Source: Patescibacteria group bacterium | GTDB taxonomy: Bacteria; Patescibacteriota; Patescibacteriia; JAHJFT01 | NCBI GenBank assembly: GCA_028710985.1 | Contig: JAQTTB010000001.1 | Span: forward strand, 19,280 to 83,279 | Direction of reading: 5' to 3' | Length of the DNA stretch: 64,000 bases | Shown: positions 13,097 through 29,399 of the stretch, one piece after another | Layout: the number at the start of each line of letters is the position of its first letter | Position numbering within the stretch: position 1 is the first letter of the stretch | Position numbers and translations under genes: made by a program | The notes under the pieces: generated by a model | Databases searched by the model: none | What the model saw: the letters and a program-made list of their open reading frames with translations, nothing else | What the model was told of the DNA's origin: nothing

Positions 13097-13552
13097 CTAT
13101 TGTTTTATTGTTCTCTTAAAAATGAATATTTTCTGAAAAAAGAAATTAATAAAATAGAGAATGGCATACACCACAAATTTTGCCGCCACGTCCCAGATTC
13201 CGAGGTAATGCACCGTGACAAACAGCAGGCCTTCGCCGATCAAAAAAACCACAAGCGCGTTAATCCAATAAACCGCATACTGCCTGACCACGCGCTTATC
13301 CGTATCGCCGAAAGTATAAGTCTTGTTAAACCAATAACCCACGATCGCGCCGAGCGTCATGCTCACAAAATTCGCCAAAAGATAATGTATGCCGAAAATT
13401 TTTGTGAGCAATAGATACGTCCCAAAATCAACGCCGGTCGCCCCGGTCCCCACGATCGTGAACCGCCACAGCTGTTTGATGGTTTGAAAAAGATTTGATT
13501 TTTGAGATATATTTTTGAGATTTGAGATTTGAGATTTGAGATTATCTTCCAT
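13097..13552 (-). CDS. GtrA-family membrane protein
   Basis: It is 151 aa with 4 TM helices. The N-terminal block RFTIVGTGATGVDFGTYLLL and the central block NFVSMTLGAIVGYWFNKTYTF are typical of GtrA. Confidence 0.7.
   Translation of the reverse strand: MEDNLKSQISNLKNISQKSNLFQTIKQLWRFTIVGTGATGVDFGTYLLLTKIFGIHYLLANFVSMTLGAIVGYWFNKTYTFGDTDKRVVRQYAVYWINALVVFLIGEGLLFVTVHYLGIWDVAAKFVVYAILYFINFFFQKIFIFKRTIKQ
13517..13543. repeat. About 3.5 tandem copies of the heptamer GAGATTT within the first 15 codons of the GtrA gene
   Basis: Visible directly as gagatttgagatttgagatttgagatt. The unit length is not a multiple of three. Confidence 0.7.
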
Positions 13553-13613
13553 ACTCTTGAAATTTTATCTAATATTAGTTAATATATGCCCACAAGCACA
13601 TATATTATCTCCT

Positions 13614-14993
13614 ATGACCGACACCATTGTCAAAGTAAAGAAAGCCCTGCTCGTGCTCGGCGACCTCGCGGCCGCCTATTCTTCGCTTTATCTTACCCTG
13701 CTTTTACGCTACCGCGACGGCCTGAATCTTGAAGCCTGGCAGAGCCATCTCGTCCCGTTCACCGCAATTTACCTTGCCTGGATTGTGGTATTTTTTATAA
13801 GCGACCTTTATAACCTGAACACCGCGCGAAACACCGTGGATTTCCGCCGACGCTTCTTCCAGGCTCTGGCAATCAACGCCCTGATCGCGGTCGCCTTCTT
13901 CTACCTCAATCCCGCCGTCGCTATTGCGCCAAAAACCAACCTTATTATCAACATCGCAGTTTTTGCGATTCTCGCCTACTTTTGGCGCGCGATTTTCAAC
14001 CTCGCGGCTTCACATTCAATTTTCGCGAACCGCGTGCTCTTTATTGGTTCACAGAAAAAATTTCAAGACATCATGCCCGACCTCGCACGAGGCGCCTATC
14101 ACGACTGGAAGGTCGTTGCCGTTGTCGACCCGCAGGAGATTAAAGAATACCGCCGCGACAACGTCAGTTTTTATAAAAACACCACCCCGCTTTCCGAAAT
14201 CATTAACCAGGAAAAAATCAGCACCATCGTGCTCGGCCTCTCCCCGGAAGAGCACCCGCGTCTCGGAAGAGAACTCTACGACTGTATCTTTGCCCATTCA
14301 ATCGCAGTCGTGAATTTGCCGAAATTTTATGAAATCGTCACCCAGCGCCTGCCGGCCGATTTGCTTTCAGAATACTGGTTTTTGGAAAATATCAAAGAAA
14401 TGGACAAAAAATTCCACGACTCGGCAAAGGCCATCGCCGATATCGCCCTCTCAATCGCCTTTGGCGCATTTTTCCTCGCCACCCTACCGATTATCGCGGC
14501 CGCGACACTGATCGACAGCGGCTGGCCAATTTTTTACACCCAGAACCGCGTCGGCCGCCGAGGCAAAATTTTCAAAATCATCAAATACCGCACCATGTAC
14601 CGCGATGCCGAGCTCCAGGGCGCGCTCTGGGCTAAGCGCAACGATGCACGCATTACCCGCGTCGGCCGCTTGCTCCGCAAAACCCGGCTGGACGAACTGC
14701 CGCAGATTATCAATGTCCTCAAGACCGACATGAGCTTCATTGGCCCGCGGCCGGAACGCCCGGAATTTGTAGCTGATTTGGAACGCATGATGCCGTTCTA
14801 CGCTCTCCGCCACTTAACCCGGCCCGGACTCACCGGTTGGGCGCAAATCAATTATGAATACGCCGCGAGCTACGAGGAAAATTTGAAAAAACTACAATAC
14901 GATTTATACTATATCAAGAACCGGTCACTCCTCTTGGACTTTAAAATACTTTTAAAGACCGCCGGGATTGTAATAAGCAGGAAGGGGCAATAA
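13614..14993 (+). CDS. Polyprenyl-phosphate sugar phosphotransferase, WbaP/EpsL-type initiating bacterial sugar transferase
   Basis: N-terminal TM helices are followed by a C-terminal Bac_transf domain (TDMSFIGPRPERPEF...LRHLTRPGLTGWAQINYEYAASYEENLKKLQYDLYYIKNRSLLLDFKIL). I set the start at MTDTIVK (13614) rather than 13536. Confidence 0.85.
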   Translation: MTDTIVKVKKALLVLGDLAAAYSSLYLTLLLRYRDGLNLEAWQSHLVPFTAIYLAWIVVFFISDLYNLNTARNTVDFRRRFFQALAINALIAVAFFYLNPAVAIAPKTNLIINIAVFAILAYFWRAIFNLAASHSIFANRVLFIGSQKKFQDIMPDLARGAYHDWKVVAVVDPQEIKEYRRDNVSFYKNTTPLSEIINQEKISTIVLGLSPEEHPRLGRELYDCIFAHSIAVVNLPKFYEIVTQRLPADLLSEYWFLENIKEMDKKFHDSAKAIADIALSIAFGAFFLATLPIIAAATLIDSGWPIFYTQNRVGRRGKIFKIIKYRTMYRDAELQGALWAKRNDARITRVGRLLRKTRLDELPQIINVLKTDMSFIGPRPERPEFVADLERMMPFYALRHLTRPGLTGWAQINYEYAASYEENLKKLQYDLYYIKNRSLLLDFKILLKTAGIVISRKGQ

Positions 14994-16054: not shown

Positions 16055-17308
16055 ATGGAAATCAAATTAATAAAAATCGCTGAAAAATTTTTCAAAACCG
16101 ACATTAATTATTTAATTAAGGGCGGCTTTTGGCTTACTTCCGGGCAAATCCTTACTTCGCTGTCATCTCTAATTTTAGCAATCGCTTTTGCCAATTTGCT
16201 GGAAAGAGAATCTTATGGCACCTATAGATATATTCTTTCCGCAATCGGCATCATTTCGCTCTTTACTCTTCCGGGAATAAATACCTCTTTGATAAGATCG
16301 ATAGCGAATAATTTTTCCGGATCCTACCTGAAGGCAATTAAGACAAAGTTTAAATTTTCACTGATTGCCACTATAGCTTGCTTAATAGTCGGAATATATT
16401 ATTTTTATTGCCAAAATAATGAAATTGCCTTTTGTTTCTTTATTATTGCATCCATTATCCCTTTCAATAAATCATCCGAACTCTATTTGTCTGTACTGAA
16501 CGGCCAGAAAAGATTTAAACTCTATACTATTCTATATGCGAGTTCAAATATTATTGCAACGTTGTCAATAATCTTAACTTTATTTTTCACGGATAGTTTA
16601 GCGCTAATTTTAACGTCGTATTTCTTATCTTATACGATCCTGCAATTAATATTTTCTTTGTACGTAAAAAAATACCTAAACAACAATGAGGCTGATAATA
16701 CCGTTGAATATGGCATTCATTTGAGCATAATGGATGTAATCAAAACGATCGCCGGACATCTCGACAGGATACTCATATTCAACGCAATGGGACCGTTAGA
16801 GGTGGCTATTTACTCTTTTGCCGTTGTCCCGCATAGCCAGGCAAAAAGTTTCCTCGAAAATATTAAAGTCCTCGCTTTCCCCAAACTTAGCGCGTCCAAC
16901 GAGGAGGATATAAGAAAATTTTTACCAAAAAAAATTCTAAAAATGGAGCTCATAATCGCAATCTTGGTAATCATCTACATCTTCGCCGCTCCGACCCTAT
17001 TCCAAATATTTCTCCCGAAATACATGGATTCGGTCCTCTATTCCCAAGTGTACTTTATCTCGTTGATATTTTTCCCAAGAACAATTTTATCTACCGCAAT
17101 GACCGCAAAAATAAAAAAGAAAGAACTTTATTCCATAAGAATCCTCAGTCCAATACTAAGAATTATACTGATGGTCGTCGGATTAAAATTCTTTCAACTT
17201 TGGGGCGTACTCGTCGCGGGTATGGCGGCAAATGCGCTCATGATGTTAATCTACGGCTATTACTTTAAAAAAGCATTCAAGCAAATCACTTATCAATCAT
17301 CTCTCTAG
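16055..17308 (+). CDS. Oligosaccharide flippase, Wzx / MOP superfamily
   Basis: It is 417 aa with about 12 TM helices. The N-terminus KGGFWLTSGQILTSLSSLILAIAFANLL is typical of polysaccharide biosynthesis (Wzx-like) proteins. This is the first gene of the AT-rich block. Confidence 0.7.
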   Translation: MEIKLIKIAEKFFKTDINYLIKGGFWLTSGQILTSLSSLILAIAFANLLERESYGTYRYILSAIGIISLFTLPGINTSLIRSIANNFSGSYLKAIKTKFKFSLIATIACLIVGIYYFYCQNNEIAFCFFIIASIIPFNKSSELYLSVLNGQKRFKLYTILYASSNIIATLSIILTLFFTDSLALILTSYFLSYTILQLIFSLYVKKYLNNNEADNTVEYGIHLSIMDVIKTIAGHLDRILIFNAMGPLEVAIYSFAVVPHSQAKSFLENIKVLAFPKLSASNEEDIRKFLPKKILKMELIIAILVIIYIFAAPTLFQIFLPKYMDSVLYSQVYFISLIFFPRTILSTAMTAKIKKKELYSIRILSPILRIILMVVGLKFFQLWGVLVAGMAANALMMLIYGYYFKKAFKQITYQSSL

Positions 17309-18071
17309 AAAAAAGACTGTTGCGGGGATATATCAGCAAGATCTGAAATAGCAAATATACTATCGAAAAAATGATATATAGACCATACATCCATACTCCA
17401 TATCTAATATCGTACAAGCAAACCAATAATATCAATAAATACCATATCCATACGAAGTCGTAGATCATACTTACCGAATAGTTAAGAAATTTCATAAAAA
17501 CCTTTTTACCCGTAAAGAGGTTTTTATTATAATCCCTGAGGACATCCTGATGATTTTCAAGAGTAACTTTATATTTGATATGATGCCTCAACTTACCTAG
17601 CATTTTATAGTTAGTGAGCAATATGGAAAAAACAATGCTCGAAATTAATATCAGCATGTTCTGCGTAAGAACATAAAGAAAAACGCCCGTAGAAAAAGTC
17701 AAGGCAAACGGATAATAGAAATGAAATAATATCTCGTAATATATTCCCCTCTGAGTATAATGCTCACGATATCGGGCAATACCACCGTCTACCTTATCCA
17801 ACATTGATGATATTCTCATCAAAATAAGCTGGATAAAATATATCCAGAAAGGATCTACGGCAAATAACAGTAAATTAATAAAAAGGGAGATAATCAATAA
17901 CGCCACATTCAAAACGGACACGAAGTTGGGCGAAATTTTTGGAAAAATATTTAACAAAATAAATGTTATATACAAGGCCAGATAGCGTTCTGCGCGGTAT
18001 ATAATACCGCTCTTTTTTATTTTTTCCTGCTTGCCCAAGAAACATTTATCCCTCAGCTCAGAAAATGTCAT
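17286..18071 (-). CDS. Polytopic membrane protein with a partial CDP-alcohol phosphatidyltransferase-like motif
   Basis: DKVDGGIARYREHYTQRGIYYE resembles the D-G-x2-A-R-x8-G-x3 core of the CDP-OH transferase motif, but the final Asp is not evident. It has multiple TM helices and is very AT-rich. Confidence 0.35.
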   Translation of the reverse strand: MTFSELRDKCFLGKQEKIKKSGIIYRAERYLALYITFILLNIFPKISPNFVSVLNVALLIISLFINLLLFAVDPFWIYFIQLILMRISSMLDKVDGGIARYREHYTQRGIYYEILFHFYYPFALTFSTGVFLYVLTQNMLILISSIVFSILLTNYKMLGKLRHHIKYKVTLENHQDVLRDYNKNLFTGKKVFMKFLNYSVSMIYDFVWIWYLLILLVCLYDIRYGVWMYGLYIIFSIVYLLFQILLIYPRNSLFSREMIDK

Positions 18072-19177
18072 ATAAATTTAAATAATTTAATTAGTTTATC
18101 CGTCTGCTGTGATAAGGAAAAATTATCACGGACATGGGAAAATGCCGCCATCCCCATTTTATTTCTAGTTTCACTATCCAGCATTTTCTTTATAGCATTA
18201 CTGATTTGATCTTCATTGCCACGCTCAATAATAAACCCATTCACATTATCAAGCACTATCTTATTTATTCCCCCTACGGCAGTTGAAATAACCGGCAATC
18301 CACATGACATGGCCTCCAGTACGGCATTTGGACAACCCTCATTTTTAGAGTATAAAATAAAAATATCGGCCAATAGATACTGTTCTTTTAATTCCTCTCT
18401 ATCCAATAAACCGGTAAAAATAACTTTTTCTGCCAGCCCTAAATCAAGCGCAATTTTTTCGAAATGCTGCCGCAATTGACCCTCGCCGACGAGAACAAGT
18501 CTGGCGATAGGCAGACCCCGATCCACCATTTTTTTAAAAAAATAAATTAATTGTTCCTGGCCCTTGTTCTCATTTTTCATCGAGCCCACATTCAATAACG
18601 TTACCCGGTCAATTTTTTTACCTTTTCTTAATTCCCCCAATGCTCCTTCGGATATTTCAATTTCGACTCCATTATTAATAACAATCATCCGGTTTCGATA
18701 GAATGGCTGATACTTGACTAGGCTGTTCATTACTTCTTCTGAAACGGCGATTATCCTATAGCAACAAAAATTTAAAAAAACATCGATTATCCTTAAAAAC
18801 AAACTCTTTCGATCCGCCATCCCCGATTCTCGAATTAAAACCCTCAGCCTCGGATTAAAAATTTTCAAAAGTCTAGCAACGACGTTCGCCACATCTAGGG
18901 TAGAATAAACAAATTTTATATTGTTAGTTTTCACAAAAAGCAGGGTTCGATAAAATGATCTAACGTCAAATAAATACTTAAAATTAAAACTCACTACTTC
19001 ATTTTTTATTCGTAATTTGGAAACGAAGGTCTGTTCGGCGCGAAAAATCGTAGCAAAAAAAATATTAAATCCCTGCGCCGATAAATAGTTAGCCTGTTTT
19101 ATAAAATAAGTTTCGGCGCCGCCGACACCCAATCCGTTTATCAAAAGTAATATATTTTTAGTTGCAGATTCTTTCAT
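18068..19177 (-). CDS. Glycosyltransferase family 4
   Basis: LLINGLGVGGAETYFIKQANYLSAQG is typical of GT4. The C-terminus reads VLVGEGQLRQHFEK...ILYSKNEGCPNAVLEAMSCGLPVIST. Confidence 0.8.
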   Translation of the reverse strand: MKESATKNILLLINGLGVGGAETYFIKQANYLSAQGFNIFFATIFRAEQTFVSKLRIKNEVVSFNFKYLFDVRSFYRTLLFVKTNNIKFVYSTLDVANVVARLLKIFNPRLRVLIRESGMADRKSLFLRIIDVFLNFCCYRIIAVSEEVMNSLVKYQPFYRNRMIVINNGVEIEISEGALGELRKGKKIDRVTLLNVGSMKNENKGQEQLIYFFKKMVDRGLPIARLVLVGEGQLRQHFEKIALDLGLAEKVIFTGLLDREELKEQYLLADIFILYSKNEGCPNAVLEAMSCGLPVISTAVGGINKIVLDNVNGFIIERGNEDQISNAIKKMLDSETRNKMGMAAFSHVRDNFSLSQQTDKLIKLFKFI

Positions 19178-19178
19178 A

Positions 19179-19847
19179 TCAGTTACACCGCACCACGGCC
19201 CATATTTCCCCCCAATTTATTTTGTAATCCGATATAGACATTCCGGCTGAATTCAGCTCTTCGGAAAAGTCATTAAAAGTATATTCAATAAAATGATTCC
19301 GATCCAATCGATATTCAAGTCCAAGCTCTTTTTTATACGGCACTAACCAATCCCGATTAATCATCGGCACGCGTATTAAAGCGATATCGCAAATATTTTT
19401 TATTTGCTTTAAAAGAGAAGTCCTATCATCTATATGCTCCAGTACATTAGATACTACGACGCGATCAAATTTTTCATTAAAACTATACTGTGTCGCATCG
19501 GCGACAATATATTCAACGTTTGGCAACGCGCAGTGCGATTTTGCATACTCAATACTGGTTTTATTCATATCAATCCCCACGACTCTTTTGGCCTTTTTGG
19601 CAATCTCGCGGGTCAAAATACCATTACCGCAGCCAATATCAAGGACGGTGTGCGATGGCTCGATATTATTTAGAAAAAAATCGTGATATTCAGTGAGGCG
19701 ATGCTTTGGATGTATCCCCCCCTCTCGCAATGAAGCGACCGTGACAATTTTATGCAATGCCCAATCGTGCAAATAAAATAATCGCCTCAGGATCCAGAGG
19801 GATAAATTTTTATTTTTAAACGCTCTTTTTAATAAATCCTTTAGCAT
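19179..19847 (-). CDS. Class I SAM-dependent methyltransferase
   Basis: Motif I is VLDIGCGNGILTREIAKKAKRVVGIDMN. Confidence 0.75.
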   Translation of the reverse strand: MLKDLLKRAFKNKNLSLWILRRLFYLHDWALHKIVTVASLREGGIHPKHRLTEYHDFFLNNIEPSHTVLDIGCGNGILTREIAKKAKRVVGIDMNKTSIEYAKSHCALPNVEYIVADATQYSFNEKFDRVVVSNVLEHIDDRTSLLKQIKNICDIALIRVPMINRDWLVPYKKELGLEYRLDRNHFIEYTFNDFSEELNSAGMSISDYKINWGEIWAVVRCN

Positions 19848-20775
19848 ATTCTTTTAATGTGGAACTAATAATACTTTTTTTCTTTGAAAAAATCAGCATC
19901 TTTTCAAACAAATCATAAAAATGTTCCAATTCCTGTTCATTTTTCACATAAGGGCTTCCGCCGATCATCAGCTCGCTTGAATGCACCATAAAAACAGCTA
20001 CGGGAAAATTTTGTCTGAGTAAAGCTTCGAGCACAGACCTTATTTCATCAAAACTTGAGTTTGAGAATATCCTCAACCACCGCTGTTTAAAAAATAATTT
20101 ATTTAATACTTTTTTCAATAACGAATCCGGCAATAAAGCAAATGACCTAGAAATATATGAGGCCTCTCCAACGAAAGGTGAGGTAAACGCAACTGTCATC
20201 GGCACCTCCAATACCCCGTCCACTACCGAGGGCATCAGCGACGAACCGCGAAAATCCGGTCCCCGTCTATCGTGGCCGCCGGAAGAATTATTCTTCCATG
20301 ATATCTTTGGGGTTACCGAGCTGTCGGCGATATAGCCCAATTTATTCAAAAATCGCATTATCCGAATATCATAACCCCAGCGTCCGGCTCGATGAGTCTT
20401 TGGACTTATGCCAAAATTTTCCGCAATCGCCTTTGTTAAAGATGATAATTTTTTGTACAGCTCTTCGTCTTCAAGCTCATTAGGAAAACGATGCTTCAGC
20501 ATTTCCCATTCCCTGTCCTTCACACAAGGCGGTGTTGTCCAAGGATGCAAATGAGCCCCAACTTCCGCTGACCCGGAATCCTGAAAAGGCTTAAGAATAT
20601 TTACCGATTCTCTATCTACCGCAACCTCATAAGTTATAAAATATGTCGGTTTAAAGCGATATTTTTGGCAAAGCTCCTGGAAGCGAGGCAGAAATTTAAT
20701 ATTTTCAAGTGTAATTTCCTCAGATCTTTTCCACTGGTTGTCCGCCTCAACATCAACGGTTATTATTAATTTCAT
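19816..20775 (-). CDS. Polysaccharide deacetylase/deformylase-like protein, CE4 / ArnD-like
   Basis: MKLIITVDVEADN and a His-containing block (VGAHLHPW) resemble CE4-type deacetylases. The similarity is weak. Confidence 0.35.
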   Translation of the reverse strand: MKLIITVDVEADNQWKRSEEITLENIKFLPRFQELCQKYRFKPTYFITYEVAVDRESVNILKPFQDSGSAEVGAHLHPWTTPPCVKDREWEMLKHRFPNELEDEELYKKLSSLTKAIAENFGISPKTHRAGRWGYDIRIMRFLNKLGYIADSSVTPKISWKNNSSGGHDRRGPDFRGSSLMPSVVDGVLEVPMTVAFTSPFVGEASYISRSFALLPDSLLKKVLNKLFFKQRWLRIFSNSSFDEIRSVLEALLRQNFPVAVFMVHSSELMIGGSPYVKNEQELEHFYDLFEKMLIFSKKKSIISSTLKEYAKGFIKKSV

Positions 20776-22406
20776 ACATTTTTAAAACCCCTGATTCGCA
20801 TCCAATATTTGATAACGCTTGAATACACCTTGTAATAATAGTAACATTGTTTTCTTTCACCGCCAAATGCTTCCTTGAATTCAGCGATTGACCTGAGCCC
20901 CCTCTGATTTGAATCCGGACTTATGCCGCCTAAGTCAAAAATTTCATGATCCGTTAATTTCGCGTATCGAATTGCCTCCCAAACGATCATCCGATTTGCC
21001 TGCCCCACAATCTCGCACTGCTGGCTATCGGAAAAACGCAGTGAGGAAAGAGCCCAAGCACGAATATTCCTAGTATCGCTGATAAAAATACCGCCGGCGA
21101 TCATTTCGTTTTTATAATAAGCGGAAAAAAGTAAGCCGTTTTCTAGATAATGGTTGACTCTTTCGATGGGCAAACCTTTTTCTGAGCGAAAAATACTATA
21201 AATTCTTCTAAATTCCTTATGATTTAGGTCATTTTTTACGATAATCCCATTTCTTTCCCCTCTTTGAATCTGTTTACAGATATAATTTTTCCTCATCTTG
21301 CTCCAAATCGTTTCAATGCTCTGTCTTAAATCAATTACCGTGGTTAAACCCGCTCGTTTATGAAAATCTGGCTTATCAATATTGTGATAGGAAAAAAAAT
21401 TGATCATTCCAACGCCTGGAATGTCTTGCGGATCCTCAAACCATCGCCAGCACTTTTTTAAAAAATTAGTGTCAAATAAACCATAGCAAATCCGGCTAGA
21501 AATTACCGGCTTATGCGCCTTTATTAATATAAGATGTGAAAAACCTCTGATTATCGGCAAGTGTTCAGCGAGGCGAAAAAGCGTTGGATAAATTTTTTTT
21601 AAAAAACCCATCCTCTGTTCAAACGGAAGCGCTATGTCAATGAAACTAACATTGTCGATAAAAAAATTTTTGTTAAATAAATTTATTATATCTTTCGCGG
21701 AAAAATAATAATAATAAATACCCGAAGGATGAACTCCCTCTTTTGGTAATTTCTTTAATCTCCTCCTTAAATCAAGATGATACGCCGATAAAATCAACGG
21801 CTTGCCCGGCGCAAGGGTGAAATTAATGTTTTGGAGAAACTGATTACGATACGCATCGGATGGCAAATGCTCTAAGACTTGGGCAGAGAAAGCAATATCA
21901 AAAAAACCTTTTGCTGTTTTAAACGACGTTACGTCAGCCCAGACCAAACCAACATTATTGGATTTTAATTTGCACGAAAGTATCTCCAGCGAATTAAACG
22001 AGATATCCACCCCCAATAAACAACTATAATCAACAAATTCCTCTGTAAAACGACCTGTTCCGCAGCCATACTCAATTATTTTTTTTCCCGATACGTCGCC
22101 GACTTGCGCAAGCGTTGAGGGAATTTCCCTATCATGCCTCGCAGACAATCTAGCGTCATAACCGCCAGCTTGCGCATCTCTAACGGCTATCTCAGAACCT
22201 ATTTTTTCATCATTGACCGTCTGCTCCGGCAATATAAACAAAATCCCATTTTTAATTTGATATGCTTTCCCACAACGAACGCATTTTAGAAAACCATTAA
22301 ATATTGCCTCGTCATTGCCGCTTTCCATGCCACCAATTTCAAGACGAGCGTTATCAGATTGACAGACCAGGCAAGCAATAAGTTTTTTCGAAAATCCTAT
22401 CCTCAT
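20772..22406 (-). CDS. Fusion protein: Trm112-like zinc ribbon, class I SAM methyltransferase, and a FemAB/Acetyltransf_6-like acyltransferase domain
   Basis: A CxxC...C..C ribbon (CLVCQSDN...CVRCGKAY) is followed by IIEYGCGTGRFTEEF (motif I). The C-terminal roughly 250 aa resemble the FemAB-like GNAT fold (GLLFSAYYKNEMIAGGIFISD...EFKEAFGGE). Confidence 0.55.
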   Translation of the reverse strand: MRIGFSKKLIACLVCQSDNARLEIGGMESGNDEAIFNGFLKCVRCGKAYQIKNGILFILPEQTVNDEKIGSEIAVRDAQAGGYDARLSARHDREIPSTLAQVGDVSGKKIIEYGCGTGRFTEEFVDYSCLLGVDISFNSLEILSCKLKSNNVGLVWADVTSFKTAKGFFDIAFSAQVLEHLPSDAYRNQFLQNINFTLAPGKPLILSAYHLDLRRRLKKLPKEGVHPSGIYYYYFSAKDIINLFNKNFFIDNVSFIDIALPFEQRMGFLKKIYPTLFRLAEHLPIIRGFSHLILIKAHKPVISSRICYGLFDTNFLKKCWRWFEDPQDIPGVGMINFFSYHNIDKPDFHKRAGLTTVIDLRQSIETIWSKMRKNYICKQIQRGERNGIIVKNDLNHKEFRRIYSIFRSEKGLPIERVNHYLENGLLFSAYYKNEMIAGGIFISDTRNIRAWALSSLRFSDSQQCEIVGQANRMIVWEAIRYAKLTDHEIFDLGGISPDSNQRGLRSIAEFKEAFGGERKQCYYYYKVYSSVIKYWMRIRGFKNV

Positions 22407-22408
22407 AT

Positions 22409-23521
22409 TTATCCTAAAATCTTCATTAAATCATTATAAAACCGATCGGGGTTATACTGATTCTTTATCAATTCAAAGCCGGCATTTCCCATTTTTATTA
22501 AGTTGTGCTGATCCGAAATAGTCAGGCGAATCTTATCTATTAAATCGACCAAATTTTTACTTTCAAAGATGTAACCATTCACGCCATTCTCAATATATTC
22601 CTTCGTTCCATTTTCGCTCGAACTAATAACCGCCAGTTTGCAACTCATTGCTTCAACTATCGAAAAAGCCGCGGCTTCACCATAGCTCGGTAAAATGAAT
22701 ACATCATTTACTTTATATTCTTCATAAACATCCTTCCAATTAATATCAAATTTCACCTTCACAATTTCCGATAAATTATTAACTTTAATGTACTCTAATA
22801 ATTCATTTGTATATTCATTCTCATCCCTTTCGCCGACTAATGTAAGATTAATATTAAAATTATCTTTTAATTTTTCAACGGCCTTAACTAATAAAATCTG
22901 ATTCTTGCGCTCTTGGAATTTACCTACGCAGATAATATTAACCCATCCGCCAATAAAATACTCCTTGTTGAAGTCAAGCGCTTCATGAACAAATGGAATA
23001 TAAAAAAGATTCTTATTCTTACTTGCATAAGCGTCGTTACCCCTCAATGGAGTAATTACCGACGCCTTCCACAAAAAACCAACCAGCCAAATCGAGAAAC
23101 TCTTGATTTTTTTTCTAAATTTTTCAATTTGAATTAAAAAAATAATTTTTTTAACACCCAGGAACCGACTTAGAAGCGCGCCAAGGATTGAATAAAGACT
23201 ATCAATATTTTTTATCAGCACAACGTTCGGCCGATATTCCTTTATCAAATGATATAGTGAAAATATGGGTGGATAGCTATATCGTATCTCGAACCGATTC
23301 TTAATTGTGCGTCCACCCCGCTTATTGAATATTCTATTAAATAGCTTAAAAATATTCGAATATCCAACAACTCGCGGTTCTAGAATATCATAGCATTCTG
23401 ATTTTCCGCGATACATAACAAACATGGCCACTTCGTGTCCAAATGACTGAAGGGCCTCAATCATGTAGAAAAAATTTGTATGATATCGCGGGGTAAGAAA
23501 TAAAAATTTCATTGATTTCAA
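22409..23521 (-). CDS. Glycosyltransferase family 4
   Basis: The C-terminal block LTLVGERDENEY...FILPSYGEAAAFSIVEAMSCKLAVISS...NGVNGYIF is typical of GT4. Confidence 0.75.
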   Translation of the reverse strand: MKSMKFLFLTPRYHTNFFYMIEALQSFGHEVAMFVMYRGKSECYDILEPRVVGYSNIFKLFNRIFNKRGGRTIKNRFEIRYSYPPIFSLYHLIKEYRPNVVLIKNIDSLYSILGALLSRFLGVKKIIFLIQIEKFRKKIKSFSIWLVGFLWKASVITPLRGNDAYASKNKNLFYIPFVHEALDFNKEYFIGGWVNIICVGKFQERKNQILLVKAVEKLKDNFNINLTLVGERDENEYTNELLEYIKVNNLSEIVKVKFDINWKDVYEEYKVNDVFILPSYGEAAAFSIVEAMSCKLAVISSSENGTKEYIENGVNGYIFESKNLVDLIDKIRLTISDQHNLIKMGNAGFELIKNQYNPDRFYNDLMKILG

Positions 23522-25224
23522 ATTTTTAAAATTTTATAATCCTTATTACTGAAAACTTCCTCCAGTCCGTCTGCTGAATTCGAACTATAGTATAAATCCA
23601 TATATTTACCGCGCGGCAAAAGAATATATGAACAATCAAGCCTAACGGCAAAATTTACAATCTCTTTGAAGTCAGCCGCTTTTTCAACGATCTGATTATA
23701 TGCCTGTCTCTCCTCATACCATCTTTTAGCATTTTCGAAATTTGAAGTAACCCAAATAGAACCTTCTTTTTCAGTCAGATTAGTATTCTGCCTACTTAAT
23801 ACTTTGAATTTAAATTCATTTTGAAAGTCATCAAAAACAAAAATCCGGTTCTCACTAACGGAAAGCGCGCTTTTTGCCCAAATTGCCGCCTCATAAAGAT
23901 TGTTAAAGTTATTTGTATTCGATTCATCCACCACGGGGGCTAAATTATATTTTATTCTTATGCCTTCGGGCACCAATGCCCTTACTACCGGCCTAATAAC
24001 GGGCGCAAAAAAATAAATTGGCGTAACCACAACGATCAAAGATAATGCTACGGACAGCCATTTTTTATTCATCCTAGAATAAAGCAAATAAACAACTAGA
24101 GCGAACTGCATGATTAGAATGAAGCCCAACACCCTCATTAGCCGAATGTGCTCCACGAAAAATGGCAGCTCTCCATTTTTCATTAAAAAATAATTAGTAA
24201 CATCAACACCGATAACGAATAAAATGGTTATAATCATCAGTATGGTGCTGATTTTATGAACTGCCCGTTTCTCCGAATCTAATGAGGACCCGTAGATACG
24301 CATGATAAAAAACGATAAAAAAAACATTAAGATCATTGTAAAACTATCCCACATCGAACGTTTAATTCTGGCCAAGTCGACTGTCGCGAGAAAACCGTTC
24401 GCTTCAAACCTATATTGAACAATTTCAGAATGCAAAGCAACGTCCTCGGCGCTCAAATACTCCTCGGCCGGAATCATGCCGGTACTCGAATTAGTAAAAT
24501 GGTTTATCAAAAATGGCAAAGCTACTATAAAATAAATGACAGCAAAAATAATTATCGGCTTGAAATATGCCCTATGTTGCTTCGCATAAAAAATCAAAGC
24601 GCCCAAGATAAATAAACCGATAACTACGCTTCCGACGGGCGGATATAAGTAAAGCAAAATGCCGGCAGATATTGCCAATAAAATATTATATTTATTATTT
24701 TTTAAACCATAAATTATCCAATAGTAGCTAAGCAAAAAATAAAAAGGAAAGGCGAATGTATTGCCGCGCAAATTCCCAAGATCGAGCAAGCCAATTCTTG
24801 TAAAGAATACATTACGCGGTACTACGCACAAAAGTCCCACCAATGCCGCTAGGGACCAGCTTTTAAATATTTTTTTAGCAATTAATCCGCTCGCAAGATA
24901 GGTTATGGCAATTATAAGAATAGTAAATAGATGATAGCTCACTAAATCATACTTCAAGCCTGGATTGAAATAATAAAAAACCGGGAACGCTGCATATAGC
25001 TCCTCCTGATTATAAGCCGACGGCACGTCTGTCCATACTCCATCATTTTTTTGTATCATCAATAATTGATAACACCAAAGATCGCTGCTCAAATCGCCAA
25101 GATTACTACCATAATTAGTAAAAATATAATAAAAAATTATGACTACAAGTATGATAGTAAAAAAAAGTTTAGAATTGAAAAATTTTAACATTTTATTTAC
25201 GTTGTTTAAATAGAAGATCAGCAA
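23518..25224 (-). CDS. Large polytopic membrane protein; candidate O-antigen polymerase or GT-C-like enzyme
   Basis: A 568-aa ORF with more than 10 TM helices, then a soluble domain of about 150 aa. It is embedded among GT genes. I recognised no motif. Confidence 0.35.
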   Translation of the reverse strand: MLIFYLNNVNKMLKFFNSKLFFTIILVVIIFYYIFTNYGSNLGDLSSDLWCYQLLMIQKNDGVWTDVPSAYNQEELYAAFPVFYYFNPGLKYDLVSYHLFTILIIAITYLASGLIAKKIFKSWSLAALVGLLCVVPRNVFFTRIGLLDLGNLRGNTFAFPFYFLLSYYWIIYGLKNNKYNILLAISAGILLYLYPPVGSVVIGLFILGALIFYAKQHRAYFKPIIIFAVIYFIVALPFLINHFTNSSTGMIPAEEYLSAEDVALHSEIVQYRFEANGFLATVDLARIKRSMWDSFTMILMFFLSFFIMRIYGSSLDSEKRAVHKISTILMIITILFVIGVDVTNYFLMKNGELPFFVEHIRLMRVLGFILIMQFALVVYLLYSRMNKKWLSVALSLIVVVTPIYFFAPVIRPVVRALVPEGIRIKYNLAPVVDESNTNNFNNLYEAAIWAKSALSVSENRIFVFDDFQNEFKFKVLSRQNTNLTEKEGSIWVTSNFENAKRWYEERQAYNQIVEKAADFKEIVNFAVRLDCSYILLPRGKYMDLYYSSNSADGLEEVFSNKDYKILKI

Positions 25225-26054: not shown

Positions 26055-26981
26055 TTATTTATTTATTGCAATTATTCGAATATTGGAGGTGGCATATAGA
26101 GCCCCGAGAACAAAATCAATTAACGAAAAAAATAGTGTTAAAAATAAATTATTTATATTAAACCAACCGGCAATTTTTTTATGTTTGTCATCGAAATAAT
26201 GATGCAATGACTGAATCCAGAAAGTCGGGCTCAGCAAAAATTGAATTCCAATAACAGCGAAATTGCACTCATTCAACAAACCCACGAGGATATTTTTATT
26301 AAAAATATGCCAATGTCGTGGTATATGATAGCCTCCCCAATATCTCTTTCTAAAAATTCTCGCATCTAGAGAATCGTAATTTGGGGTTTCGATAATAAGC
26401 AAGCCGTTCCGTTTAAGCATCCTCCTGGCCTTTAAAATAATTTCGCGTGGATTATGAAGGTGCTCAATCGTTTGATTCAAAATGATTGCGTCAAAATAAT
26501 CATAATAACCCCCCATTTCTTCGAATCTTCCTGCAATGAATTCGATACCATGCCGATTTAATATATCACCAGTTGCAGAATTAATATCATTGCCATACAA
26601 TTTCCATCCGCTACCCCTGTGTTTCTTAATAATTCTGAGCAATTCTCCGTTGCCGCACCCACCGTCGAGAATTCTAGCATCATCCGAAAGATTAGCAAGC
26701 AAAGGACGAACCTTCAATCTTTGCACAAAATTCCGCGCAATCTTTGTAATAAAATTTAACCCCTCTTCAAATTTATAAGGAAAATAATTTGCTGGATAAA
26801 TCTTTTCAATTTCTCCGACGGTCGGATTGGGATTTAGGTATATCACACCGCACTTTAAACACTTTACGTAACAATATTCCTGATCGGATGTGTGATATTC
26901 AAAATCTTTTCCATGCGCCCAAACTTTGTACAGATCCGATCCGCATACACCACGACAAGCTTTTTGGGTCCTTATTTCCAT
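26055..26981 (-). CDS. Class I SAM-dependent methyltransferase with an N-terminal Cys-rich region
   Basis: ARILDGGCGNGELLRIIKKH is motif I. The N-terminus reads CRGVCGSD...CYVKCLKCG. Confidence 0.7.
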   Translation of the reverse strand: MEIRTQKACRGVCGSDLYKVWAHGKDFEYHTSDQEYCYVKCLKCGVIYLNPNPTVGEIEKIYPANYFPYKFEEGLNFITKIARNFVQRLKVRPLLANLSDDARILDGGCGNGELLRIIKKHRGSGWKLYGNDINSATGDILNRHGIEFIAGRFEEMGGYYDYFDAIILNQTIEHLHNPREIILKARRMLKRNGLLIIETPNYDSLDARIFRKRYWGGYHIPRHWHIFNKNILVGLLNECNFAVIGIQFLLSPTFWIQSLHHYFDDKHKKIAGWFNINNLFLTLFFSLIDFVLGALYATSNIRIIAINK

Positions 26982-27080: not shown

Positions 27081-28913
27081 TTATAATTCAAGCTTATTTT
27101 TACGGTAAAATTTTACAAAACTTATCAAACCCCACAACTCTCTACTATAATCTTTCTTATTCCCCATATGATCCGCAACCATTTTTTCAATCGCTTTACC
27201 ATTTAAAAATGCTATATCCGCAATATTCTTTTTATCTAAAATATCCATCATGAAATCCTTTAATTCATTCTTCAGCCAATCCGCGATCGGAAAGCTGAAT
27301 CCCTGCTTCTTTGTATAAATTAACTTTTTCGGTAAATACCTCTCTAGAAGCTTTTTTAAAATATACTTAGTGGTGATACCGCGAATTTTTAATCCCGGCG
27401 CCAAGGAATTGCTAAACTTTATTACTTCGTTGTTCAAGAAAGGAACACGTACCTCTAAAGAATTAGCCATGCTCATTCGATCGACCTTGACTAAATACTC
27501 CCCTTCCAGCACGGTTTTCTGATCAACATACAATAGCTGATTCAGCACATCTTCCCCCTCCACGACTTTAAAATACTCTGCAAAATCGTCGCAAACATTG
27601 TTAAAAAAATCTTCAACTAGGATATCCGCATTATGCATTATTCTATAATAAAAATGAGATTTTGTAAATGGATACTTGGCCGCATAAACAAACCTTTTTA
27701 ACTTATAATCAAAGCTCATTTTTCTGTAAGAAGACGGCAAATAATGAACCATTTTTTCCACCAATGTTTTTATGGGCAGGTGGCGATAAATTTGACTAAT
27801 TCTAGGCAAATAATAGATAGGGTAACCCCCAAATAACTCATCCCCGCCGTCGCCGGATAAGCAGACTGTCGCTCGCTCTTTTGCAAAATGGCACAAGAAA
27901 TATGTGGGAATCGCGCTGCTGTCACCAAAAGGCTCCTGAAAATAATCAAAAATATCCGGAATGGCATTTATGACCTCCCTCTTCTCTAGATAAATCGAAT
28001 TATGATTAGTGCCAATAATCTTTGCGATTTTACTGGCGTTCTTTGATTCGTCATAAGAATTCTCACCGAAATTAAATCCAACCGTAAATGTATTCAGGTT
28101 TCCTACATGCTCCTTGGCGATGGCGGTGATTAAACTAGAATCAACGCCGGAGGATAAGAATACCCCCAATGGCACATCGCTGACCAAGGATTGTTCGATT
28201 GATTCATCGAGCACGCACCGTAGGGCATCGATTGAATTATTAAGATCTTGATAATTATTTGTAAATGTCGGTTTCCAATATTCCTGAATATTAATTTGCT
28301 CTTTCTGCAAATCAAAAATCGCAAAACTAGCCGGTGGCAATTTAAAAACGTTTTCAATTATGGACTCATTGCCATAAATGTAATTTTGATAAAAAAATCT
28401 TCTGACTGCCCTTAAATTAATTTTTTTGTTGATCTGGAGCGATGCCAGCTCAGAGGCGAATTGAAATATCCCGTCATGAAAACTATAGTAAAGTGGTTTT
28501 ATTCCCATTCGATCTCTGGCCAAAATTAATTGATTTTTAACTTCATCGTAAATTGCCAGGGCGAACATGCCATCGAATAATTTGAAGGCTTCTGGTCCAT
28601 ATTTAATATAGGCCCTTAATACAACCTCCGTATCGGAATCGGAGAAATAGTCACCGGGCAAATCTTTTTTTAATTTTTTAAAATTATATACTTCACCATT
28701 GTAGACAATCGCATAGGCGCCAATTCTCATGGGTTGGCTCGCCCTTTGAGAAAGATCAATGATAGAAAGACGCCGGTGTCCTAATTTGACCCTCTGATCT
28801 TCGGATATAAAAAAACCTGCCGCATCCGGACCGCGGTGGAGCATTGAATCTCTTCTCTTCAAAAAAATTTCCTTATCAAATTTCGATGAATATTCTCCGA
28901 TAATTCCGCACAT
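27081..28913 (-). CDS. asnB: Asparagine synthase (glutamine-hydrolysing)-family amidotransferase
   Basis: The N-terminal nucleophile is MCGIIG, and the synthetase domain carries the PP-loop SGGVDSS (LSSGVDSSLITAIA). Length is 610 aa. Confidence 0.85.
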   Translation of the reverse strand: MCGIIGEYSSKFDKEIFLKRRDSMLHRGPDAAGFFISEDQRVKLGHRRLSIIDLSQRASQPMRIGAYAIVYNGEVYNFKKLKKDLPGDYFSDSDTEVVLRAYIKYGPEAFKLFDGMFALAIYDEVKNQLILARDRMGIKPLYYSFHDGIFQFASELASLQINKKINLRAVRRFFYQNYIYGNESIIENVFKLPPASFAIFDLQKEQINIQEYWKPTFTNNYQDLNNSIDALRCVLDESIEQSLVSDVPLGVFLSSGVDSSLITAIAKEHVGNLNTFTVGFNFGENSYDESKNASKIAKIIGTNHNSIYLEKREVINAIPDIFDYFQEPFGDSSAIPTYFLCHFAKERATVCLSGDGGDELFGGYPIYYLPRISQIYRHLPIKTLVEKMVHYLPSSYRKMSFDYKLKRFVYAAKYPFTKSHFYYRIMHNADILVEDFFNNVCDDFAEYFKVVEGEDVLNQLLYVDQKTVLEGEYLVKVDRMSMANSLEVRVPFLNNEVIKFSNSLAPGLKIRGITTKYILKKLLERYLPKKLIYTKKQGFSFPIADWLKNELKDFMMDILDKKNIADIAFLNGKAIEKMVADHMGNKKDYSRELWGLISFVKFYRKNKLEL

Positions 28914-28919
28914 AGATAC

Positions 28920-29399
28920 TTAATTCTCTTTAAAGCAAAAAACGAATCTTTTATTAATTAAAAATGTAAAAAAGGACATTAATAATCCGACCAGGGCAAC
29001 GGATAAAAGGTAATAAAAACCTAAAATAGTTGTTAGCAAATAGACCAAAGTGAAGGTAATTAATCCTATTGCGCCATATATCGCGAGATAACCAAGGTAC
29101 CTTGCAACATAACCTGATTTTCCATGACCAGAAAATGTAAATAATGAATTCATTATAAAACTAAAAGTCCAGGTAATAAAAGTTGCGATTACAAAAGATA
29201 ACATGTACCAAAAATGCAGTGATTCAGTAAAAATGAAAGTTAATAATAAATTCAACAAAAAAGAACTGACTCCAATGATGAAAAATATCGGATATCTCCT
29301 AAAGATATTTATTATATTCAAAGCCATCTTGAAAAAATTAATAAAGTCACGCTTCAACAATTTTCTTTTTACGACCTCCGAATTTCCATGAATTGCCAT
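28920..29399 (-). CDS. GtrA-like small membrane protein
   Basis: It is about 135-159 aa with 4 TM helices. The true start may be the internal Met at 29327, which would remove the 53-nt overlap with the upstream gene. Confidence 0.5.
   Translation of the reverse strand: MAIHGNSEVVKRKLLKRDFINFFKMALNIINIFRRYPIFFIIGVSSFLLNLLLTFIFTESLHFWYMLSFVIATFITWTFSFIMNSLFTFSGHGKSGYVARYLGYLAIYGAIGLITFTLVYLLTTILGFYYLLSVALVGLLMSFFTFLINKRFVFCFKEN

Follow-up and report, generated by a model that had tools for sequence, protein, structure and literature searches.

A Trm112-like, methyltransferase, and Fem-type fusion protein of Patescibacteria with a probable role in adding an amino acid or other acyl group to a surface sugar and methylating it

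The fusion gene and its cassette

The central gene of the locus is one unbroken reading frame with an ATG start (20772..22406, minus strand). It codes for a 544-aa protein in which a Trm112-like ribbon is followed by a class I SAM methyltransferase and then by a short Fem-like transferase; HMM, profile, and structure tests agree on all three assignments, as the sequence-only reading of this single ORF had proposed. Database records of the identical protein bear the title 'class I SAM-dependent methyltransferase [Patescibacteria group bacterium]'. The window, by which we mean the whole 64-kb stretch of DNA analyzed, also carries an initiating sugar transferase, Wzx, Wzy_C, about 10 glycosyltransferases, and several methyltransferases, and the placement of the gene in a glycan locus was thus correct.

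Directly upstream, 2 nt before the fusion ATG, lies a GT4 glycosyltransferase gene (22409..23521, minus strand; Glycos_transf_1, E 9e-30), whose orthologs with 37–50% identity occupy the same position in six related loci (L010, L011, L012, L014, L015, and L021). The cassette continues with a 568-aa polytopic membrane protein with nine hydrophobic segments (23518..25224, minus strand), which has no Pfam or NCBIfam match and has orthologs with 41–51% identity in five of these loci (all except L012). On the other side, the start of a CE4-like (NodB-type) deacetylase-family gene, hereafter DeAc (319 aa, 19816..20775, minus strand), overlaps the fusion stop codon (ATGA). On the same strand are a second class I methyltransferase of 222 aa (19179..19847; assigned by Pfam, 44–50% identity in seven cassette loci), another GT4 glycosyltransferase (18068..19177; assigned by Pfam, conserved at 37–42% identity), and a CDP-alcohol phosphatidyltransferase-like membrane protein of 261 aa (17286..18071; PF01066, E 1.2e-4, 23 bits versus a cut-off of 22), which has at least four hydrophobic segments and is conserved in the cassette. 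A Wzx-type flippase gene (16055..17308, plus strand; Pfam Polysacc_synt) is convergent with the cassette, and its orthologs (40–49% identity) retain both this position and this orientation. Between 15.5 and 29.5 kb, the promoter and terminator scan gave 58 and 15 hits, respectively, versus 52.9 and 11.0 in shuffled sequence; since these counts were regarded as no higher than in shuffled sequence, no operon boundaries were taken from the scan.

Separate adjacent genes encode the two halves of the fusion in most related genomes, and it could be supposed that an assembly or sequencing error joined two neighbors into a long ORF. The chance of this is negligible. Identical copies of the 544-aa protein occur on three contigs from different sources (NCBI and Logan), the largest of 744 kb; both domain junctions can be aligned end to end in 17 relatives with 37–49% identity to the fusion; about 20 distinct clusters (37–51% identity) are fused in the same way, with a linker that can be aligned; and fused forms are present in Magasanikbacteria, Saccharibacteria, and Vogelbacteria loci. 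The fusion is confirmed as a genuine three-domain enzyme and not a sequencing artefact, and the merging of two genes by a frameshift, which the sequence-only reading had named as its possible undoing, is contradicted by the relatives that span both junctions.

The domain combination had also been called atypical. The fusion is real, but it is one arrangement among several and is evolutionarily labile. In 17 of the 24 related loci with resolved ORFs, the Fem-like module (FemL) stands alone beside a separate Trm112-MT or GT4 gene, and the other arrangements include GT4-FemL fusions and a GT4-MT-FemL fusion. The earlier question of whether the fusion is conserved or split in relatives therefore has a twofold answer: it is fused in about 20 clusters, yet most related genomes keep the modules as adjacent genes. 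Because the modules are separate in most genomes and fused to GT4 in others, the notable unit is the gene cassette rather than the fusion, and the order of the cassette genes is conserved across several candidate phyla. The nearest relative of the Fem-fused GT4 domain within the window is the GT4 protein 18068..19177, with 25–30% identity. The upstream GT4 protein 22409..23521 was rejected as its ortholog (about 28% identity, partial match), being outscored by 18068..19177 and by two non-cassette GT4 genes, which themselves reach only 25–30%.

Domains of the fusion and its deacetylase partner

The Trm112-like zinc ribbon comprises residues 1–62 (22221..22406, minus strand). For Trm112/UPF0434 membership we looked for homology to Trm112 over about 60 aa and, in ribbons that still bind zinc, for a CxxC...CxxC pattern. 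Single-sequence scores lie below the cut-offs: Pfam Trm112p (PF03966) gives E 0.23, and the NCBIfam Trm112_arch match covers 54 of 59 model positions with E 1e-6 and 28.8 bits, versus a cut-off of 77. The profile built from 18 family ribbons matches solved Trm112/UPF0434 chains with E 9e-13 to 4e-4 (6zxw_H, 9e-13; 9xac, 8e-7; 6f5z_C, 2e-5), and it is through this family profile that the ribbon is placed in the group. The four cysteines noticed earlier, C12, C15, C42, and C45, are present in the fusion. Among the 18 family members, C15 and C42 are invariant, C45 is found in 12, and C12 occurs only in the 544-aa protein; judging by these aligned sequences, no other member has all four.

Residues 67–298 (21513..22208, minus strand) form an N-terminal lid helix and a class I SAM methyltransferase Rossmann domain, according to Pfam and fold matches. 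Class I membership was judged by motif I of the form E/DxGxGxG, an acidic residue ending β2, and a Pfam score above the gathering threshold. The translation places the previously noted SAM-binding motif I EYGCGTGRF at residues 112–120 (22047..22073, minus strand); E112, G114, G116, G118, and D134 are invariant in all 18 family members; and five Pfam models (Methyltransf_23, 25, 11, 12, and 31) score above their gathering cut-offs with E 3e-12 to 4e-7. The domain thus belongs to class I, as had been read from the motif. By fold it resembles class I methyltransferases that act on small molecules (3bkw, phosphoethanolamine N-methyltransferases, Hvo_0019, and RebM). The fold search with the full-length AlphaFold2 model of the fusion (pLDDT 88.9, pTM 0.77) pointed to no specific substrate class, the neighbors of the methyltransferase fold being generic. 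A PBECR1 nuclease match in the Pfam scan of the fusion (E 0.059) was discarded as noise.

The ribbon profile matches chain C (Trm112) of the Haloferax Trm112-Hvo_0019 complex (6f5z), and the methyltransferase fold matches chains A and B (Hvo_0019), so the N-terminal part of the fusion looks like a covalently linked Trm112-methyltransferase pair. The substrates of the Trm112 partners known so far are tRNA, rRNA, or release factors, whereas this pair sits in a glycan cassette.

The C-terminal module, residues 305–544 (20775..21494, minus strand), was assigned as a short Fem-type GNAT by the domain model, Foldseek, and a PDB profile. In the domain model (pLDDT 94.4), three N-terminal strands, the remnant of lobe 1, are followed by one complete GNAT lobe. 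The module has about 240 aa, and most of the first GNAT lobe, about 100 residues, is absent; accordingly, matches to FemAB and FemX models or chains of 330–337 positions begin only at position 105–170. It does not have the two tandem lobes of FemABX proteins, and it does have their catalytic lysine with a preceding aromatic residue, F510-K511 (20874..20879, minus strand), which the HMM alignment to 1xe4 and 1ne9 places with the catalytic Phe304-Lys305 of Weissella FemX. These positions are F and K in 17/17 family members reaching the column, and 103 of 116 library representatives carry the motif [FYW]K..[FWY]G. With a median pI of 9.8, compared to 8.9 for the methyltransferase half, the module is strongly basic, although a high pI is common among CPR proteins.

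Pfam describes the module poorly. FemAB (PF02388) reaches 16.3 bits (E 0.0046) on the fusion versus a gathering cut-off of 24, and matches 14 of the 18 family members at E up to 0.1 (best 2.7e-6). Acetyltransf_6 (PF13480) has no match on the fusion at E up to 1, and matches 13 of 18 members at E up to 0.1 (best 7.2e-5). Hence, the HMM scan proposed with the sequence-only reading (PF13480, PF08241, and PF03966) succeeded for the methyltransferase, which exceeds its cut-offs, and failed for PF13480 and Trm112p on the fusion itself. The structural comparison proposed alongside it was favorable, since the fold search with the AlphaFold model led to Fem-type enzymes including FemX and to no unrelated fold. 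What stands of the suggested FemAB/Acetyltransf_6-like C-terminus is the Fem-type fold; what does not is a full FemAB or PF13480 protein, as the form is short and one-lobed. The library contains 113 representatives of this family of about 240 aa when matches with E up to 1e-30 are counted, and 1355 with E up to 1e-10. No curated model captures it, and the current labels are 'hypothetical' or, mistakenly, lipid II glycyltransferase. The module has no paralog within the 64-kb window.

The deacetylase assignment of DeAc is tentative; for CE4/NodB membership we looked for a PF01522 match and an Asp/His-His metal triad, and added a PDB profile. PF01522 gives a weak match (24.5 bits versus a cut-off of 23.1, E 2.9e-5) and matches 11 of 18 orthologs. 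The profile matches only CE4 deacetylases in the PDB, again weakly (E 0.004–0.1); it was used instead of the single-sequence search, which returned chance matches to iodotyrosine deiodinase and TDP-43 with E 0.27 or weaker. D8, E10, D12, H75, and H77 are invariant, with H-x-H spacing versus the usual H-x-x-x-H. Each of the 25 close loci, which come almost entirely from Patescibacteria, has a DeAc ortholog that adjoins the Fem-like module or lies one gene off. Neither the fusion nor DeAc has transmembrane segments, which indicates that both are cytoplasmic, where aminoacyl-tRNA is available. No tRNA genes were found within the 64-kb window.

Known relatives and the nature of the transfer reaction

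In the Foldseek search with the domain model, the best PDB matches were Sbb17/Sba18 (E 1e-15, TMq 0.66), FemX (4e-12, TMq 0.60), and MprF (1e-10, TMq 0.55). Ranks 1–26 are all aminoacyl-tRNA-dependent transferases (Sbb17/Sba18, FemX, MprF, and FemA; E 1e-15 to 2e-8), and acetyl-CoA GNATs appear from rank 27, with E 6e-8 or weaker and TMq of at most 0.48 in most rows. The profile of the domain gives the same order (Sbb17, E 1.5e-7; FemX, E 0.003). On these predicted structures and profiles, the module is confirmed as a short Fem-type GNAT, a relative of tRNA-using Fem enzymes.

The best profile and fold match, Orf11/Sbb17 with Sba18 of the BD-12 pathway (9wqw, 9wqx, 9wqy), shares 21% identity and the F-K..FGG motif with the module. 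Orf11/Sbb17 and Sba18 are Fem-type GNATs that transfer glycine from Gly-tRNA to the free amine of an amino sugar (PMC12945691), and aminoacylation of an amino-sugar amine by a Fem-like enzyme is thus already established for Orf11. The differences are also clear: Sbb17 and Sba18 act in an actinomycete streptothricin-analogue pathway on a soluble small-molecule acceptor, have two lobes and about 290–310 aa, of which about 90 N-terminal residues are without counterpart in the module, and show neither fusion to a methyltransferase or GT4 nor a Wzx/Wzy locus. Two lobes are found in every characterized aminoacyl-tRNA-dependent Fem-type enzyme (PMC12945691). In FemX the acceptor site is built by lobe 1, most of which is missing here; the partner domain, methyltransferase or GT4, therefore probably completes the acceptor pocket, and this would account for the repeated fusions.

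Weissella viridescens FemX resembles the module in its lobe 2 fold, in the Phe304-Lys305 pair aligned with F510-K511, and in its basic surface. Its catalytic residue is Lys305, which corresponds to Lys329 of DhpH-C, an essential residue there (PMC12945691). This weak similarity to FemX models, together with the automatic JGI name 'lipid II:glycine glycyltransferase' on P0071 and on fragments of the P0093 cluster, might suggest a lipid II:glycine glycyltransferase building peptidoglycan interpeptide bridges. Such a role is very improbable. Lobe 1, which holds the UDP-MurNAc-pentapeptide site in FemX, is reduced to three strands in the module; scores of at most 31 bits compare to a FemX equivalog cut-off of 500; and the gene always lies amid GT4, Wzx, and Wzy-type genes and occurs fused to GT4 or methyltransferase, with no example among mur or fts genes in the loci examined. 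The context of FemX is peptidoglycan, whereas that of the module is surface glycan.

The identity of the donor is a more serious matter. An acyl-CoA-dependent N-acyltransferase acting on the amine exposed by the deacetylase, with the methyltransferase acting separately on the sugar, is consistent with the GNAT fold, with the acyl-CoA GNATs found from rank 27, with the PF13480 matches in 13 of 18 family members, and with the loss of lobe 1, by which the module comes to resemble single-domain GNATs. In addition, a G-x-A element (G468-Q-A470) lies at the β4-α3 junction, the position of the pyrophosphate-binding loop in acyl-CoA GNATs, which would be compatible with CoA use, although the canonical Q/R-x-x-G-x-G/A motif is absent as such. 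A related case is HfsK of the Caulobacter crescentus holdfast, a FemX-like GNAT of a Wzx/Wzy-type pathway that needs the cytosolic deacetylase HfsH; HfsK is proposed to acylate the amines of the EPS precursor exposed by HfsH, and its authors explicitly left its acyl donor open (PMC5362036). Against CoA stand the best 26 structural matches, all aminoacyl-tRNA users with E and TM values clearly better than those of any CoA enzyme, and the invariance of the Fem-specific Phe-Lys pair; besides, removing an acetyl group to put a simple acyl group back would be less economical, though cases are known. Overall, we consider an acyl-CoA donor somewhat unlikely, but not to be neglected.

The third question is the bond formed. 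An aminoacyl-tRNA-dependent, MprF-like enzyme could instead esterify a sugar hydroxyl or a phospho-alcohol (e.g., glycerol phosphate) supplied by the CDP-alcohol phosphatidyltransferase-like protein, leaving the deacetylase to serve another step and giving a decoration that alters surface charge, as on teichoic acids. MprF and aminoacyl-PG synthase domains are strong fold matches (E 1e-10), and the CDP-alcohol phosphatidyltransferase-like protein belongs to the conserved cassette. Relatives of about 253 aa in Lachnospiraceae have no DeAc ortholog nearby, which also means that deacetylation is no universal prerequisite. However, the amide-forming Sbb17 and FemX surpass MprF in TMq, linkage to DeAc is seen in every one of the 25 close loci, with translational coupling to the fusion in this genome, and the CDP-alcohol phosphatidyltransferase-like gene is absent from several GT4-FemL-DeAc loci, e.g., L025–L028. 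Both the ester and its teichoic-acid-like product therefore seem quite unlikely.

Proposed role in surface-glycan assembly

The reading we prefer, to which we give a probability of about 0.45, is that the fusion is a soluble tri-domain tailoring enzyme of the cytoplasmic stage of a Wzx/Wzy surface-glycan pathway, in which glycosyl transfer by GT4, deacetylation, aminoacylation, methylation, and export follow one another. A GT4 enzyme would put an N-acetyl-hexosamine on a lipid-linked oligosaccharide, and the co-translated CE4-like enzyme would strip the acetyl group and leave a free amine. The Fem-like module would then move an aminoacyl group from charged tRNA to the exposed amine, by the chemistry that Orf11/Sbb17 performs on the amino sugar streptothrisamine. 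The fused methyltransferase would methylate the product, possibly at the new α-amine or at a nearby hydroxyl, with the Trm112-like ribbon as a putative built-in activator or stabilizer, and Wzx would flip the finished unit across the membrane. We infer the donor (aminoacyl-tRNA or acyl-CoA), the acceptor, and the methylation site. The aminoacylated or N-acylated and methylated sugar proposed in the sequence-only reading is, on the gene content, the best-supported reading, and the invariably linked CE4-like deacetylase gene strengthens it.

More generally, we tentatively suggest, as a proposition slightly less probable than even, a minimal one-lobe Fem-type enzyme that would transfer amino acids from charged tRNAs to a lipid-linked polysaccharide repeat unit, methylated at once in the fused forms, in Patescibacteria and possibly Lachnospiraceae. 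In our search of the literature on FemAB proteins and glycans, tRNA-dependent aminoacylation of a polysaccharide was not described in any paper. If the suggestion is true, tRNA-dependent aminoacylation would be seen for the first time on a cell-surface glycan besides peptidoglycan or a lipid head group, and the module would represent a new architectural class of Fem enzymes whose acceptor site is supplied by the partner methyltransferase or GT4 domain. With aminoacyl-tRNA as the donor, non-ribosomal aminoacylation would reach surface polysaccharides, beyond peptidoglycan, membrane lipids, and antibiotics, and glycan decoration would be tied to translation in organisms with tiny genomes. CPR episymbionts meet their hosts at the surface, where a charged, methylated amino-acid decoration, if present, would matter biologically.

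Fem-like GNATs are present in many exopolysaccharide loci (HfsK, PEP-CTERM 'FemAB'), and to our knowledge none has a known donor or product. The CPR cassette, with its conserved gene order, GT4 and methyltransferase fusions, and coupled deacetylase, would be an unusually clean test case. By its description, HfsK/HfsH comes nearest in function to the logic of the cassette, the action of a FemX-like GNAT and a deacetylase on an EPS precursor having been proposed there (PMC5362036); HfsK differs in that it is proteobacterial, has tandem GNAT domains and a c-di-GMP-binding C-terminal extension, and is fused to neither methyltransferase nor GT4. The best NCBIfam match for the module and its standalone relatives is TIGR03019 (FemAB, XrtA/PEP-CTERM-associated), with E 2e-3 to 3e-9; the scores, 17.4 bits for the fusion and 15–36 for the standalone relatives, are far below the cut-off of 260, and the matches span only about positions 105–290 of the 330-position model. 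In proteobacterial EPS loci, TIGR03019 genes lie beside polysaccharide deacetylase, GT4, and asparagine-synthase-like amidotransferase genes. The window likewise contains an AsnB-like gene, whose best match is the PEP-CTERM amidotransferase TIGR03108, with 472 bits versus a cut-off of 817.

An uninterrupted three-domain frame

The ORF at positions 20772..22406 of the minus strand encodes 544 aa in a frame without interruption. An identical copy of the protein, which NCBI names 'class I SAM-dependent methyltransferase [Patescibacteria group bacterium]', is recorded from three contigs, the longest of 744 kb. Seventeen relatives (37–49% identity) align with it end to end, including both inter-domain junctions; therefore the possibility that a frameshift or sequencing error merged separate genes fails, and the chance of an assembly artefact is practically negligible. 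The fusion described in the sequence-only reading, a Trm112-like ribbon, a class I SAM methyltransferase (MT) and a FemAB-like acyltransferase, is thus a real protein.

The first 66 residues contain the four cysteines on which the ribbon assignment had been based, C12, C15, C42 and C45. The support from single-sequence HMMs is weak (Pfam Trm112p, E 0.23; NCBIfam Trm112_arch, E 1e-6, below cut-off), and a profile of 18 family ribbons (alignment A4) searched against solved chains recovers Trm112/UPF0434 proteins (6zxw_H, E 9e-13; 9xac, 8e-7; 6f5z_C, 2e-5; yeast Trm112, 3e-5). It should be noted that the full Cys4 set is peculiar to the window protein: C15 and C42 are invariant among the 18 members, C45 occurs in 12 of them, and C12 is found nowhere else. 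In the MT domain, the SAM-binding motif I EYGCGTGRF occupies residues 112–120. The domain exceeds the gathering thresholds of five Pfam class I models (E 3e-12 to 4e-7), and the SAM-binding residues are invariant across the family. The fold neighbours of this domain (3bkw, phosphoethanolamine N-methyltransferases, Hvo_0019, METTL6 and RebM) are generic small-molecule MTs, from which no substrate class can be read.

The C-terminal Fem-like module is a short form

The likeness of the C-terminus to FemAB and Acetyltransf_6 held at the level of the fold and only partly at the level of Pfam matches. On the window protein, FemAB stays below its cut-off (16 bits, E 0.0046, cut-off 24) and PF13480 gives no match; among 18 relatives, FemAB matches 14 and Acetyltransf_6 matches 13. 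A profile of 21 modules (alignment A2) identifies Sbb17/Sba18 (E 1.5e-7 and 2.7e-6) and Weissella FemX (E 0.003) among solved structures. The module-only AlphaFold2 model (pLDDT 94.4, pTM 0.90) was compared with the PDB by Foldseek, and ranks 1–26 are all aminoacyl-tRNA-dependent transferases: Sbb17/Sba18 (E 1e-15, TMq 0.66), FemX (4e-12) and MprF/aa-PG synthases (1e-10), along with S. aureus FemX and FemA. In the HMM alignment, Phe304-Lys305 of FemX corresponds to F510-K511 of the fusion, a pair that is invariant in the family; FemX relies on Lys305 for catalysis, and the counterpart of this residue in DhpH-C, Lys329, is essential (PMC12945691).

Acetyl-CoA GNATs appear in the Foldseek list only from rank 27 on, and a G-x-A element of the module lies at the position where CoA-GNATs bind pyrophosphate. 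An acyl-CoA-dependent N-acylation, to which the latter feature would belong, is the next most probable reading after the tRNA-dependent one proposed below.

The module differs in extent from its structural relatives. Matches to FemX, the PEP-CTERM FemAB model and Sbb17 start at position 105–170 of these 310–337-residue proteins or models, and the module model has three strands at its N-terminus and then one complete GNAT lobe, with about 100 residues of lobe 1 missing. In FemX, lobe 1 forms the acceptor site. When 1.84 billion representatives were searched exhaustively, 113 relatives emerged at an E-value of at most 1e-30 and 1355 at one of at most 1e-10, and the length is 230–270 aa in 106 of 141 newly retrieved top matches; the short form therefore constitutes a separate family, whose members mostly stand alone. 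Among the curated NCBIfam models none covers it (TIGR03019 comes closest, with 15–36 bits against a cut-off of 260), and its members are publicly named 'hypothetical protein' or, automatically, 'lipid II:glycine glycyltransferase'. This uncurated family, conserved across Patescibacteria (CPR), offers a direct route to testing tRNA-derived aminoacylation of surface polysaccharides.

A distant branch (23–30% identity) was observed in Lachnospiraceae MAGs from gut and rumen (loci L030–L064) as standalone proteins of about 253 aa, so the short form is not confined to CPR. In every locus inspected, these proteins are encoded directly downstream of a GT4 gene; of the 36 distant loci scanned, 11 have AsnB-like genes in the vicinity.

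A conserved CPR cassette and the proposed aminoacylation

A protein search found the Trm112-MT-Fem architecture in about 20 clusters, GT4-Fem in eight and GT4-Trm112-MT-Fem in one (P0012, 904 aa); about eleven further proteins, each of roughly 300 aa, consist of Trm112-MT only. Scanning one genome per species gave 22 close loci at 39–60% identity, almost all from Patescibacteria (Parcubacteria, Saccharibacteria, Magasanik-, Falkow-, Vogel-, Lloyd- and Taylorbacteria). According to the ORF analysis of 24 loci, the module is standalone (about 240–270 aa) in 17, joined to Trm112-MT as in the window in five (L001, L006, L014, L015 and L021) and joined to GT4 in L004, while L012 has a broken frame. 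In L005, the gene next after an MT-only gene encodes a separate protein of 247 aa that is 55% identical to the window module. The fusion is one labile variant of a conserved gene neighbourhood, and the conserved unit is a CPR cassette.

Two MAGs labelled 'uncultured Gammaproteobacteria' (L016 and L022) carry the CPR-type order of Trm112-MT, short Fem-like gene and deacetylase-like gene at 52–54% identity, which reflects either mis-binning or mislabelling, or horizontal transfer. In L008 (3570-4880), L017 (4253-4976) and L020 (4032-4970), about 0.7–1.3 kb that match no cassette query separate the GT4 or Trm112-MT gene from the Fem-like gene and may hold an additional partner gene.

Loci of Parcubacteria, Saccharibacteria and Vogelbacteria show the whole window cassette with its gene order unchanged: a membrane protein of 568 aa, GT4, the fusion, the 319-aa deacetylase-like gene (DeAc), MT, GT4, a CDP-alcohol-transferase-like protein and a convergent Wzx. 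In the window, the upstream GT4 stop codon lies 2 nt ahead of the fusion ATG, and the fusion stop and DeAc start overlap as ATGA. With the window counted in and duplicate contigs merged, DeAc has an ortholog (39–54% identity) in 25 of 25 loci, adjoining the module or one gene away, and 18 of these loci also have Trm112-MT, so that methylation looks like an optional addition to a GT4, Fem-like and deacetylase-like core. The Fem-like module is tightly linked, genetically and by fusion, with GT4, MT and the CE4-like protein.

DeAc (19816-20775, minus strand) scores just above the cut-off of Pfam Polysacc_deac_1 (24.5 against 23.1 bits), a model that matches 11 of 18 orthologs, and the ortholog profile finds only CE4 deacetylases among solved structures, weakly (3rxz, E 0.004; 3qbu, 0.028; 7bly, 0.1). 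Residues D8, E10, D12, H75 and H77 are invariant; a deacetylase function is tentatively suggested. Hydrophobic segments were found neither in the fusion nor in DeAc, so both proteins are cytoplasmic.

We propose, with a probability of roughly 0.45, an aminoacyl-tRNA-dependent N-aminoacylation, in which the GT4 enzyme would add an N-acetyl-hexosamine, the CE4-like enzyme would free its amine, the Fem-like module would move an aminoacyl group from aminoacyl-tRNA to the exposed amine, the MT with its built-in Trm112-like ribbon would methylate the product, and Wzx would finally export the unit. The aminoacylation of an amino sugar has a precedent in Orf11/Sbb17, which transfers Gly from Gly-tRNA to streptothrisamine (PMC12945691). 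The pairing of a Fem-like GNAT with a deacetylase has one in Caulobacter HfsK; this FemX-like GNAT is proposed to add acyl groups to the amines that the deacetylase HfsH uncovers on EPS precursors of the holdfast, and its authors leave the acyl donor open (PMC5362036). The PEP-CTERM EPS loci of proteobacteria have a 'FemAB-related' gene directly adjoining polysaccharide deacetylase, GT4 and asparagine synthase genes. That Fem-like GNATs occur in EPS loci and that enzymes of this kind aminoacylate amino sugars are both known ideas, and the cassette is therefore not categorically new.

Several observations weigh against this model: all known aminoacyl-tRNA Fem-type enzymes are two-lobed (PMC12945691), the G-x-A element occupies the pyrophosphate-binding position of CoA-GNATs, the deacetylase assignment is weak, and no DeAc ortholog was found near the Lachnospiraceae relatives in the 36 distant loci scanned. 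The lack of most of lobe 1, together with the recurrence of fusions, suggests that a partner domain may complete the acceptor site; the longer FemX alignment obtained with the full-length model (277–285 columns against 242–253 with the isolated module) is a hint in the same direction. Overall, the acylated and methylated sugar of the sequence-only reading is supported in a refined form, with a short Fem module of one complete lobe, a labile fusion and the cassette as the conserved unit.

The surrounding surface-glycan locus

The surroundings of the fusion bear out its glycan setting: besides an initiating sugar transferase of the Bac_transf type (13536-14993), they hold about ten glycosyltransferases (GT4 and GT2), GtrA, a Wzx flippase, a Wzy_C/TPR protein (43417-45660), sugar epimerases/dehydratases and a radical SAM/SPASM enzyme. 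The locus is of the Wzx/Wzy surface-glycan type and not one for peptidoglycan; peptidoglycan bridge formation, the role implied by the automatic glycyltransferase names, is very improbable. The fusion gene lies in a low-GC island (about 16000-42000; 35–42% GC against 46–56% in the flanks), and the glycan-tailoring genes coincide with this island. The window has a negative GC skew throughout, as fits a stretch in which nearly all genes are on the minus strand.

Four further class I MT genes in the island (19179-19847, 26055-26981, 29347-30783 and 33431-34159) point to a heavily methylated product; one of the four, of 478 aa, has two MT stretches. A CDP-alcohol phosphatidyltransferase-like membrane protein (17286-18071; 23 bits, cut-off 22) is conserved in the cassette, and L006 has a small cytidylyltransferase nearby as well, a hint that the glycan may be decorated with a phospho-alcohol in the manner of teichoic acids. 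This gene would favour an MprF-like O-aminoacylation of a sugar or phospho-alcohol hydroxyl, which we nevertheless judge improbable.

The locus also holds an AsnB-like (asparagine-synthase-like) amidotransferase (27081-28913), for which the XrtA/PEP-CTERM EPS amidotransferase TIGR03108 is the best NCBIfam model, at 472 bits and so short of its cut-off of 817; in L024, the one gene separating DeAc from the Fem-like gene is likewise AsnB-like. Two membrane proteins (23518-25224 and 31754-33418) are polytopic, with about 555–570 aa and nine hydrophobic segments each; neither has a Pfam or NCBIfam match, and both are candidate polymerases, ligases or GT-C-type enzymes of a novel kind. The former is kept in the CPR cassette at 41–51% identity. 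The radical SAM/SPASM enzyme (36334-37338) stands among GT4 genes, with a tungsten-cofactor oxidoreductase maturase as its best, sub-threshold model, and may carry out radical chemistry on the glycan or on an attached peptide. The related glycan locus L004 also has a B12-binding radical SAM gene.

Three ORFs have no family match at the thresholds used: 4975-7071 (698 aa), 39555-40265 (236 aa, in the island) and 47778-51557 (1259 aa), the last of which adjoins a subtilase (45662-47620) and the Wzy_C/TPR protein.
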